A DNA stretch of 64,000 nucleotides, from NCBI RefSeq assembly GCF_041886205.1, contig NZ_CP169029.1. One strand, 5' to 3'. A model generated the notes under the pieces. The model did no database searches. It was not told the origin of the DNA and worked only from the letters and a program-made list of their open reading frames with translations. This DNA comes from Escherichia coli. GTDB lineage: Bacteria > Pseudomonadota > Gammaproteobacteria > Enterobacterales > Enterobacteriaceae. Below, in pieces: positions 21,016-23,385 of the stretch. The position numbers and the translations under genes are program-made. Position 1 is the stretch's first letter. Each line of letters opens with the position of its first letter.

Positions 21016-21708
21016 CTAGTGATAACCACGCGCGGTCATAAAATCCGTAATCGCTTTTTCTACATCAACCAACACCTGTTCCAGTGGCTGATTGGCATCG
21101 ATATCAACCAGTTGTGCACCGCCAAAGGTTAACTGTGGCGTTATGGCTATCTTTCTTGCCAGCGATTCCCGTTTATGGTCGGGTTTACGCGCGCAGGCAA
21201 CTTCAAGGTCAACATTGAGTTTGATGACCAGATCAGGCTTATGGCTCGCCATCCAGTGAAACGCTTTACGTTCCTGGCTTGCCAGCCATGAGACAAAACG
21301 ACCACCTTCAACGTTAGGTGGGAACACCGTACCATCGTAAGCGCCAGGAATTTGGTCCTGAGGATAACGGTCGGTTAGAACAATTAACCCGCGACGACGA
21401 CAGGCAAGCATATGACGAAAACGCAGTAAGCGACGGGCGACAAACGCTGTAATTACCAGCGCCGGAACTGGTCCAGGCAATTTTTTTGCTGTTTTCACCT
21501 GATTTCGTTCAATTGTTTTATGTAAGGATTTTCCCATCAACGGTAATTTTGTCACTGCACGACCGACATTTCCGGCTTGTTTTCCTAAATGAACTCTTTC
21601 GGCAGCACCATATTTTTCGACAACGGTAATGAGATGTTCACACACCGTTGACTTACCTGAACCATCGCTACCAATAACGGCAATTAATGGAGGTGTTATT
21701 GACTGCAT
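21016..21708 (-). CDS. yghT: P-loop NTPase/kinase-like protein YghT (230 aa)
   Basis: Walker [15 protein letters not shown]. Shares DRYPQ and ARKPDH motifs with the two paralogs on the other strand. Confidence 0.88.
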
Positions 21709-21881
21709 GAATATATCCTTTAATTTAAATATTCATCCAAAATATTTATTTGGTTAATATGTTTTGATGAAAGCGTAAATCAGGTCAATGTCATAATTAA
21801 CCATTGTCACAATAAGGTTGAACGGATATTCTGAGCACGGACCACGTAATATTCAATACATTATTTGCTGCCGGGTTTTTC

Positions 21882-22595
21882 GTGAATCAACGTAATATGT
21901 CAATAATTAATTCCACGCCAGTGCGTGTTATTGCCATTGTAGGATGTGATGGTTCAGGTAAATCGACCCTCACGGCAAGCCTGGTAAATAAACTGGCAGC
22001 AAGAATGCCAACAGAACACATTTATCTCGGGCAATCGTCCGGGCGAATTGGCGAATGGATTTCACAGCTCCCTGTTATTGGCGCACCTTTTGGGCGTTAT
22101 TTGCGAAGTAAAGCGGCACATGTACACGAAAAGCCCTCAACACCGCCTGGCAATATTACTGCACTGGTTATCTATCTGCTTTCCTGCTGGCGGGCGTACA
22201 AGTTTCGCAAAATGTTGTGTAAAAGCCAGCAAGGCTATCTGCTCATCACCGACCGCTACCCGCAGGTTGAAGTGCCGGGTTTTCGCTTTGATGGCCCGCA
22301 ATTGGCAAAAACCACGGGCGGTAACGGTTGGATAAAAATGTTAAGGCAGCGCGAGTTGAAGCTGTACCAATGGATGGCGTCTTATTTACCCGTATTGTTG
22401 ATTCGTCTTGGCATTGATGAACAAACCGCGTTTGCGCGTAAACCTGACCACCAACTGGCAGCGTTACAGGAAAAAATCGCCGTTACGCCGCAACTGACGT
22501 TCAACGGTGCCAGGATCCTTGAACTGGATGGTCGGCAACCAGCCGATGAAATTCTGCAAGCGTCACTACGCGCAATTCACGCCGCGCTTTCCTGA
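21882..22595 (+). CDS. yghS: P-loop NTPase/kinase-like protein YghS (237 aa)
   Basis: Walker A IAIVGCDGSGKSTL. Contains DRYPQ and ARKPDH. Paralog of YghT and YghR. Confidence 0.88.
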   Translation: MNQRNMSIINSTPVRVIAIVGCDGSGKSTLTASLVNKLAARMPTEHIYLGQSSGRIGEWISQLPVIGAPFGRYLRSKAAHVHEKPSTPPGNITALVIYLLSCWRAYKFRKMLCKSQQGYLLITDRYPQVEVPGFRFDGPQLAKTTGGNGWIKMLRQRELKLYQWMASYLPVLLIRLGIDEQTAFARKPDHQLAALQEKIAVTPQLTFNGARILELDGRQPADEILQASLRAIHAALS

Positions 22596-22626
22596 TCACC
22601 AAAATGGATAGGGGATGATTTAACGA

Positions 22627-23385
22627 ATGGATGCACTACAAACACAAACTGTTAATAGTACAACCGCGCCGCAGCCCAACTACATTCCGGGGCTGATTGC
22701 GGTGGTCGGGTGTGATGGCACCGGTAAATCCACACTGACCACTGACCTGGTGAAATCGCTGCAACAACACTGGCAAACTGAGCGGCGCTATCTGGGGCTG
22801 CTCTCCGGCGAAGACGGCGACAAAATCAAACGATTGCCGTTGGTTGGCGTCTGGCTGGAACGGCGACTGGCGGCCAAATCCTCGAAAACCCAAAGCATGA
22901 AAACCAAATCTCCGGCGCTATGGGCGGCGGTGATTATGTACTGCTTTTCGCTGCGAAGAATGGCGAATCTACGCAAGGTTCAGCGACTGGCGCAAAGTGG
23001 CGTTCTGGTGGTCAGCGATCGCTTCCCGCAGGCTGAAATTTCGGGCTTTTATTATGACGGACCGGGGATCGGCGTCGAACGTGCGACCGGGAAAATCAGC
23101 ATGTTTCTGGCGCAGCGCGAACGGCGTTTATACCAAAAAATGGCGCAATACCGTCCTGAATTAATCATTCGTTTGGGGATTGATATTGATACTGCCATCT
23201 CCCGCAAGCCTGACCATGACTATGCCGAGCTGCAGGACAAAATCGGCGTCATGTCGACGATTGGCTATAACGGCACAAAAATTCTTGAGATTGATGCCAG
23301 AGCGCCCTACAGCGAAGTGCTGGAACAGGCACAGAAGGCGGTTTCTCTGGTTGCCATCGTTTCTGACCGCCGAAGTTTAACTTAA
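22627..23385 (+). CDS. yghR: P-loop NTPase/kinase-like protein YghR (252 aa)
   Basis: Walker A IAVVGCDGTGKSTL. Contains DRFPQ and SRKPDH. Paralog of YghS and YghT. Confidence 0.88.
   Translation: MDALQTQTVNSTTAPQPNYIPGLIAVVGCDGTGKSTLTTDLVKSLQQHWQTERRYLGLLSGEDGDKIKRLPLVGVWLERRLAAKSSKTQSMKTKSPALWAAVIMYCFSLRRMANLRKVQRLAQSGVLVVSDRFPQAEISGFYYDGPGIGVERATGKISMFLAQRERRLYQKMAQYRPELIIRLGIDIDTAISRKPDHDYAELQDKIGVMSTIGYNGTKILEIDARAPYSEVLEQAQKAVSLVAIVSDRRSLT

Follow-up and report, generated by a model that had tools for sequence, protein, structure and literature searches.

YghT, YghS and YghR of Escherichia coli: three thymidylate-kinase-fold paralogs linked to a sphingolipid cluster and candidates for its head-group step

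Introduction

In Caulobacter, six genes turn ceramide into the anionic lipid ceramide diphosphoglycerate (PMC11324152), and the first of the six encodes CpgB, a ceramide kinase of the DAGK type that carries a GGDG motif (PMC10331486). Transport of the Caulobacter sphingolipid requires the LptF2, LptG2 and LptC2 proteins of the sphingolipid locus, which use LptB (bioRxiv 10.64898/2026.04.12.717747). In Escherichia coli B, spt, acpR, epi (cerR), aasR and yghO have been described as the five dihydroceramide genes, and in vitro tests covered the E. coli proteins Spt, AcpR and AasR (PMC9386255). In the present study, we analyzed a stretch of 64,000 nucleotides of E. coli DNA (RefSeq assembly GCF_041886205.1, contig NZ_CP169029.1; the whole stretch is called the window below), in which three paralogous P-loop proteins, YghT, YghS and YghR, are encoded beside a cluster for sphingolipid synthesis and export. 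The ceramide-forming enzymes of such a cluster are understood, and so, by analogy with Caulobacter, is the exporter. Our computations support the kinase-like nature of the three proteins and their tie to the sphingolipid cluster and point to a candidate head-group module unlike that of Caulobacter, and we regard YghT, YghS and YghR as the best candidates for the head-group step of this sphingolipid.

LpxK, the lipid A 4'-kinase, is a known P-loop lipid kinase of the cytoplasmic face, and the membrane lipid precursor on which it acts is then flipped and exported by the Lpt machine. The role that we propose for the trio would be of the same kind, in that a P-loop kinase at the cytoplasmic face would phosphorylate a lipid precursor before flipping and Lpt export. 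The heteromeric archaeal polyphosphate kinase PPK3 (Saci_2019/Saci_2020) also invites comparison, as it consists of thymidylate-kinase-fold paralogs that are encoded side by side, mis-annotated as deoxythymidine monophosphate (dTMP) kinases and located in an operon with PPX, SixA and a CHAD-type protein (PMC12995831); CHAD domains are specific polyphosphate-binding modules (PMC6537752). Two of the three E. coli paralogs likewise carry the RefSeq product name 'dTMP kinase', and if our reading of the trio is true, a widespread mis-annotation of this kind would be corrected.

Three diverged paralogs of ancient origin

The yghT gene (21016..21708, minus strand) encodes 230 amino acids and is transcribed away from the tandem genes yghS (21882..22595, plus strand, 237 amino acids) and yghR (22627..23385, plus strand, 252 amino acids). 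All three products were classified as P-loop proteins of the thymidylate-kinase fold, belonging to clades that we call T, S and R, respectively. The assignment of yghT draws on its open reading frame (ORF), its RefSeq name and sub-threshold dTMP kinase matches, and that of yghS on its ORF, RefSeq name, alignment and place in the tree; YghR was the paralog used for the structure model. The gene names come from the RefSeq annotation of E. coli genomes with 98-100% identity to the window, and the trio lies between pitB and yghQ in thousands of complete E. coli genomes.

The preliminary description of this locus had reported three ORFs with common motifs, and the ORF positions and the alignment bore this out. 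The paralogs share a Walker A motif, G-x-D-G-S/T-G-K-S-T (one printed form is VVGCDGTGKSTL), a central motif that reads DRYPQ in YghT and YghS and DRFPQ in YghR, and a C-terminal motif that reads ARKPDH in YghT and YghS and SRKPDH in YghR. Pairwise BLASTP gave identities of 37% between YghT and YghS (E 5e-53), 34% between YghT and YghR (E 3e-46) and 44% between YghS and YghR (E 8e-62). These values point to true homologues, far above chance and strongly diverged.

For the locus scan, we took one genome per species and mapped the E. coli cluster proteins on to the resulting 80 loci, 73 of which are from outside Escherichia; the linkage counts below refer to these loci, with a limit of 10 kb for the whole trio and for spt. 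Orthologues of YghT, YghS and YghR were found in Enterobacterales, Carnimonas, Rhodanobacter, Luteibacter, Methylophilaceae, Rhodocyclaceae, Halieaceae, Myxococcota and a metagenome-assembled genome of the Aeromonadales. In a neighbor-joining tree rooted on two-domain relatives, clade T was monophyletic (71/71), and S and R were sister groups. The earlier view that the paralogs are strongly diverged and stem from no recent duplication is thus correct, as their identities are only 34-44% and T, S and R form separate clades across gamma-, beta- and delta-proteobacterial lineages. The divergent order of T and S was kept in 51 of the 61 non-Escherichia loci having S, and the S-R tandem in 54 of them.

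We also compared conservation among the clades in 182 sequences. The same 33 positions were at least 95% conserved in all three clades, with every catalytic motif included. T, S and R are three ancient clades, each with the full catalytic motif set, and all three paralogs look active and chemically alike.

A kinase fold outside the dTMP kinase families

A fold search with the YghR model returned the three-dimensional fold of thymidylate kinases. The matches were kinases of the nucleoside-monophosphate and deoxynucleoside kinase fold, not ABC ATPases, and the solved cPPK3 homologue 2plr was a top structural match. This search, which the preliminary description had proposed as a check, favored its suggestion that the proteins are kinase-like rather than ABC or AAA+ ATPases. 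In a Pfam/NCBIfam scan, many NTPase families matched the trio at the P-loop only; among them, the ABC_tran domain was confined to residues ~8-41 and scored 15.5 and 17.5 bits against a cut-off of 25. The scan found no DAGK-type Pfam match in the trio, which has a P-loop in its place, and the trio showed neither the family signature nor the fold of PPK2.

The scores against the thymidylate kinase (TMPK) families were also below their cut-offs. The three proteins scored 25.8, 25.9 and 31.3 bits against TIGR00041 (cut-off 83.25) and 21.1, 21.0 and 26.5 bits against PF02223 (cut-off 27), and their identity to solved TMPKs was 15-21%. The trio therefore has a kinase fold, but its members are not ordinary dTMP kinases.

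In alignments with TMPKs, the P-loop lysine falls in the P-loop, DR(Y/F) on the DRY motif and RKPDH in the lid. Arg111 (in YghR numbering, like D131-R132 and R193-K194 below) aligns with an arginine of Thermotoga maritima TMPK that starts the helix before the DRY strand and that we take to be the acceptor-phosphate-binding arginine of thymidylate kinases. The P-loop lysine, DR(Y/F), RKPDH and Arg111 were 98-100% conserved across the three clades in the set of 182 sequences, and G-x-D-G-x-G-K, D131-R132 and R193-K194 were 100% conserved. The trio differs from thymidylate and deoxynucleoside kinases (PF02223, TIGR00041) on the acceptor side, where the segment between the P-loop helix and the Arg111 helix is 35-45 residues longer than in TMPKs. 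This insert is glycine-rich and basic, carries the invariant glycines G57, G61 and G74, and appears to take the place of the dTMP-binding region. Further differences are the strong basicity of the proteins (isoelectric points of 9.6-9.9, with family medians of 9.6-10.0) and their occurrence as an ancient trio in a lipid cluster. No transmembrane segments were found in YghT, YghS or YghR.

Linkage to the sphingolipid cluster

Annotation and family scans confirmed that the neighbor of the trio is indeed a cluster for lipid synthesis and export, as had been noted from the sequence. Directly downstream of yghR lies yghQ (23431..24780, plus strand), which encodes a membrane protein of the MOP/Wzx-type flippase family (Polysacc_synt 40.4 bits against 28.2, with an NCBIfam MOP flippase match) and was present at 41 of the 73 non-Escherichia loci. 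It is followed by a gene for an unnamed protein of 274 amino acids (24780..25604, plus strand; 53/73 loci) and by a gene for a YtfJ-family protein (25613..26176, plus strand; Pfam YtfJ_HI0045, E 4e-59; TIGR01626, 214 bits against 151). The YtfJ-family protein has a strongly hydrophobic N-terminus and is likely exported; its gene was seen in enterobacterial-type loci only (30/73). Next come the genes for two permeases, an LptF paralog that is LptF2-like (26206..27276, plus strand; TIGR04407, 314 bits against 230) and an LptG paralog that is LptG2-like (27273..28352, plus strand; TIGR04408, 306 bits against 240).

The ceramide genes follow. The minus strand carries spt for serine palmitoyltransferase (28387..29559; NF047599, 600 bits against 500; the E. 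coli B enzyme has been characterized, PMC9386255), acpR for a specialized acyl carrier protein (29559..29807; identified from annotation and PMC9386255), cerR/epi for a reductase of ceramide synthesis that belongs to the NAD-dependent epimerase/dehydratase family and is of the SDR type (29839..30753; PMC9386255), and aasR for a fatty acyl-AMP ligase or acyl-AcpR synthetase (30750..32438; NF006624, 864 bits against 600; PMC9386255). On the plus strand, yghO (32843..33985) encodes an N-acyltransferase that has been assigned as the bacterial ceramide synthase (aca/cerS; RefSeq; PMC9386255).

The whole trio was present at 55 of the 73 non-Escherichia loci, spt at 42 and the LptF/G paralogs at 30, and 66 loci held one or more of the genes that make up the sphingolipid cluster in E. 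coli. The co-occurrence analysis that had been suggested for Enterobacteriaceae thus gave a positive result well beyond this family, with orthologues of YghT, YghS and YghR travelling with spt, acpR, cerR, aasR, yghQ and the LptF/G genes.

A candidate head-group module

In the logic of the cluster, the trio corresponds to CpgB and the CPG2 genes of Caulobacter, being placed between the genes that make ceramide (spt, acpR, cerR, aasR, cerS) and those that export the lipid (flippase, LptF2/G2). The genes themselves differ. YghT, YghS and YghR are P-loop kinases and have no homology to CpgB, which is of the DAGK type with the GGDG motif, and homology of the trio to CpgB was rejected on this ground. 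A glycosyltransferase is absent from the E. coli cluster, and so are the nucleotidyltransferase and transferase genes known from Caulobacter and all genes of the CC_1158-1161, CC_1152 and CC_1153 types. Because these head-group gene types are absent, the trio may be a non-homologous stand-in for the Caulobacter module, and together with the 274-aa protein it forms a conserved module that would stand in for the CpgA-D genes. The three kinases, the 274-aa protein and the YtfJ-like protein are the only candidates for head-group chemistry within the E. coli cluster.

We therefore propose, tentatively and with what we judge to be nearly an even chance of being right, that YghT, YghS and YghR are cytoplasmic phosphotransferases that give the ceramide made by the neighboring genes its phosphate-containing anionic head group. 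Spt, AcpR, AasR, CerR and YghO would make (dihydro)ceramide, a step known from work on the E. coli B enzymes or assigned through orthology. The three kinases would then use ATP to phosphorylate either ceramide or an already phosphorylated head group at the inner membrane face, possibly as a hetero-oligomer and aided by the adjacent 274-aa basic helical protein. The anionic product would be flipped by the MOP flippase YghQ and extracted towards the outer membrane by the LptF/G paralogs. Where non-enteric lineages encode a PAP2 phosphatase next to yghT, this enzyme would trim or transfer the phosphate on the periplasmic side. The fold, the retention of the catalytic motifs, the three-way ancient paralogy and the tight gene linkage are computed results. 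We infer that the proteins act as kinases, what lipid or head group accepts the phosphate, how the steps follow one another and whether a complex forms, and the suggestion of the preliminary description that such an intermediate is phosphorylated sequentially or alternatively is of the same kind.

Evidence from the PAP2 gene is consistent with this proposal. PAP2 enzymes are phosphatases of lipid phosphates and diphosphates, or phosphotransferases, at the outer face of the inner membrane. At 27 non-enterobacterial loci, a PAP2-superfamily gene abuts yghT in convergent orientation and often overlaps its 3' end (examples are L043 10696-11355, L065 10696-11385 and L049 5884-6450). A PAP2 gene in this position fits a phosphorylated lipid product. 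A gene for an LpxO-like Asp/Asn beta-hydroxylase was found at 20 loci. The Methylophilaceae loci also carry carbamoyltransferase, GT2 and DUF2147 genes.

We also searched for more distant relatives with a profile against 1.84 billion representatives, which gave 2214 relatives at E <= 1e-3. Many of these are ~500 aa long and combine a C-terminal YghT-like domain with an N-terminal nucleotidyltransferase-like domain (P0282-P0388; L083-L130), the latter bearing C-H-W-K-S-N and, further on, G-x-T-D-L-D-x-L-V, a motif typical of nucleotidyltransferases. Other architectures were a fusion of a MOP flippase (Polysacc_synt_3), NTP_transf_5 and the P-loop domain (P0340), a kinase domain fused to a GT4 glycosyltransferase (P0377) and tandem double kinases (P0239, P0240, P0242). 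In metagenome contigs, the two-domain relatives lie in polysaccharide clusters of the Wzx/Wzy type, next to genes for GT4 enzymes, a Bac_transf initiating transferase, Wzz/GNVR, a polysaccharide deacetylase and a MOP flippase; no CHAD-like neighbor was found in those clusters. What the family has in common is a setting in which surface molecules are built on a membrane anchor and flipped by MOP flippases, and the association of the relatives with flippases and GT4 enzymes points to action on membrane-anchored precursors before flipping.

Several observations weigh against the proposal that the trio builds the ceramide head group. The acceptor-side insert (residues ~56-97) was modeled at low confidence, and no lipid pocket was identifiable in the YghR model. 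The known ceramide kinase CpgB has another fold, so that a P-loop ceramide kinase would be without precedent. The literature searched contained no functional assignment for yghR, yghS or yghT. At 14 loci that carry the trio, spt is missing within 10 kb; the flippase, the LptF/G paralogs or the 274-aa gene is nonetheless present at most of them. Finally, the alignment of 182 sequences held only four clade-specific conserved positions, which is unexpected if each paralog handles a different substrate. Given such near-identical conserved residues, a hetero-oligomer or repeated steps of one chemistry would fit better than three unrelated substrates, and we consider the few differences between the clades to be no less compatible with a common chemistry or a hetero-oligomer than with three different substrates.

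The trio and the 274-aa protein make up a short list of candidates for the chemistry of the head group in organisms such as Enterobacterales, Xanthomonadales and methylotrophs. An anionic outer-membrane sphingolipid would also bear on susceptibility to polymyxin and detergents and on host recognition, as in Caulobacter (PMC11324152).

The 274-aa protein and the polyphosphate alternative

The conserved, basic and helical 274-aa protein is tentatively a remote CHAD relative. The Pfam family CHAD was matched by 13 of the 49 members of its family (best E 1.6e-6), one member reached 29.8 bits against the CHAD gathering score of 25.6 in a separate scan, and no other family recurred in more than three members. 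The E. coli protein itself had no Pfam match. Since profile searches of the 274-aa family against solved CHAD chains and E. coli YgiF gave no match, the link to CHAD comes from the Pfam matches only, and we treat this weak, recurrent similarity as a possible lead. A CHAD-type pseudo-twofold repeat was not supported in the family, as hhalign of the N-terminal against the C-terminal half gave a probability of 0.5%. The family does have invariant basic and histidine motifs, namely R-A-R/K-x-K-H-L-R-F-A, F-H-D/E-x-R-K and N-G-L-M-G-x-x-H-D. Another candidate identity, that the 274-aa protein is a free-standing version of the N-terminal ~260-aa domain of the ~500-aa relatives, was rejected (hmmsearch E 0.009 on 13 sequences; hhalign 0.7%).

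The CHAD-like partner and the likeness to PPK3 open a different reading, which is the main rival to our proposal. The trio could be a PPK3-like heteromeric polyphosphate kinase that makes polyphosphate or uses it as phosphoryl donor, with the CHAD-like protein binding the polymer; the link to lipids would then lie in providing phosphate or energy, unless polyphosphate itself is what becomes attached or exported. The structural match to 2plr noted above is one likeness to PPK3. However, E. coli already has PPK1. The paralogs are three rather than two, and the DRX arginine (R132 and its equivalents), which the regulatory PPK3 subunit has lost, is 100% kept in T, S and R. There is no PPX or SixA gene in the cluster, whose genes are those of sphingolipid synthesis and export, and the wider family is found in polysaccharide clusters, not in polyphosphate operons. 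Nor do sequence profiles favor the PPK3 homologue over ordinary TMPKs as the closer relative of the trio: the family profile retrieved the canonical Aquifex and Thermotoga enzymes first, at E ~3e-6, while st1543 was not among the best 60. In addition, the similarity to CHAD is weak, with no match for the E. coli protein, the solved CHAD chains or YgiF. We thus consider a PPK3-like role unlikely.

Other explanations of the trio

The trio could also consist of soluble kinases for small molecules or nucleotides, which would prepare an activated head-group donor, such as a phosphorylated acid or polyol, or the nucleoside di- and triphosphate pool for a nucleotidyl-activated intermediate, and would not touch the lipid. 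The fold, which is that of nucleoside-monophosphate and deoxynucleoside kinases, the lack of membrane segments and the nucleotidyltransferase-like domain of many relatives are in line with this. So is the use of soluble activated precursors in Caulobacter head-group assembly, for example the CDP-phosphoglycerate made by CpgD (PMC12275187, PMC13228409). Against this, a transferase able to attach such a donor to ceramide is not encoded in the enterobacterial cluster, the dTMP-binding region appears to be replaced by the longer glycine-rich insert, and three soluble substrates would hardly explain three co-inherited paralogs with near-identical conserved residues. This explanation seems to us rather improbable, slightly more so than a PPK3-like role.

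We also considered a more novel reading, in which the three kinases, together with the CHAD-like protein, may assemble a chain of two (pyrophosphate), three or more phosphates directly on ceramide and so produce a (poly)phosphate anchored to a lipid. One paralog would act on the hydroxyl, after which the others would add phosphate on phosphate, as nucleoside-monophosphate kinases and PPK3 do. Its diphosphate-type head would be similar to that of undecaprenyl diphosphate; the Wzx-like YghQ would flip the lipid, the LptF/G paralogs would export it, and a periplasmic PAP2 phosphatase, in lineages that have one, would trim it. Such a lipid would add a new class to the bacterial membrane lipids, and its synthesis would be a novel role for the thymidylate-kinase fold; we regard it as a small chance, lower again than that of soluble donor kinases.

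A very unlikely explanation is that the trio serves as ATP-binding accessory or regulatory subunits that energize or gate YghQ or the LptF/G-like exporter. The genes lie directly upstream of yghQ, and the relative P0340 is fused to a MOP flippase. MOP flippases, however, are not known to be ATP-driven. The fold is that of kinases and not of ABC or AAA+ proteins, with the ABC_tran match limited to the P-loop, and the kinase-type DRX and lid motifs are fully conserved. For the LptF/G paralogs in particular, a role of the trio as their ABC ATPase was rejected on the fold and because the Caulobacter LptF2/G2 use the housekeeping LptB (bioRxiv 10.64898/2026.04.12.717747).

That YghT, YghS and YghR are additional dTMP kinases, as the RefSeq product names of two of them and the weak Pfam and TIGRFAM thymidylate-kinase matches would have it, is hardly credible, given that the scores stay at 25-31 bits against 83 (TIGR00041) and 21-26.5 bits against 27 (PF02223), that identity to solved TMPKs is low, that the genes stand in a lipid context and that similarly annotated Sulfolobus paralogs showed no dTMP kinase activity (PMC12995831).

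Intergenic regions and strain variation

The spacer between yghT and yghS (21709..21881, 173 bp) is presumed to be a regulatory region. It is AT-rich, with a GC content of 30.6% against 51.8% for the whole window. The description of a divergent promoter region at this site holds for the arrangement, as yghT is divergent from yghS-yghR across the spacer, but promoters as such were not supported by a consensus scan of the 173 bp, which gave no more sigma-70-like sites than shuffled sequence; the scan found one weak site, on the plus strand at 21804-21832. Overexpression of SlyA has been reported to induce yghS 3.1-fold, and the gene is flagged in a regulon-overlap table (PMC5797941). The gss-pitB intergenic region (19000-19499) is similarly AT-rich, with 34% GC over 500 bp. 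Between the convergent genes pitB and yghT, a hairpin with a 12-bp stem and T-runs was found at 20977-21005. It looks like an intrinsic terminator common to pitB and yghT, possibly a bidirectional one.

We also examined the distribution of the locus among 5426 complete genomes. A 2.6-kb yghT-yghS-yghR query was at least 80% covered in 4604 of them, and the 16.6-kb stretch downstream of yghR in 4044. The complete sphingolipid cluster is thus present in most E. coli strains, where it is apparently silent. K-12 has lost the middle of the cluster. In two K-12-like loci (L003 and L030), yghO lies near a shortened yghQ, and the genes from that of the 274-aa protein through aasR are absent. In strain MB53 (L001, 24717-25575), yghTSR is 100% identical, IS1 truncates the YtfJ-family gene, and the rest up to glcA is missing.

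Some E. coli records contain chimeric paralogs that are joined exactly at DRYPQ (P0048, P0085, P0024, P0026 and P0031; L163 and L164). Two types were seen, one with the N-terminal half of YghS and the C-terminal half of YghT, and the other with the N-terminal half of YghS and the C-terminal half of YghR. The S::T chimera occupies the yghT position beside pitB, as expected of an inversion between divergent genes, and the S::R chimera would correspond to a deletion between tandem genes. Identity between the paralogs at the junction extends over only about 8 bases.

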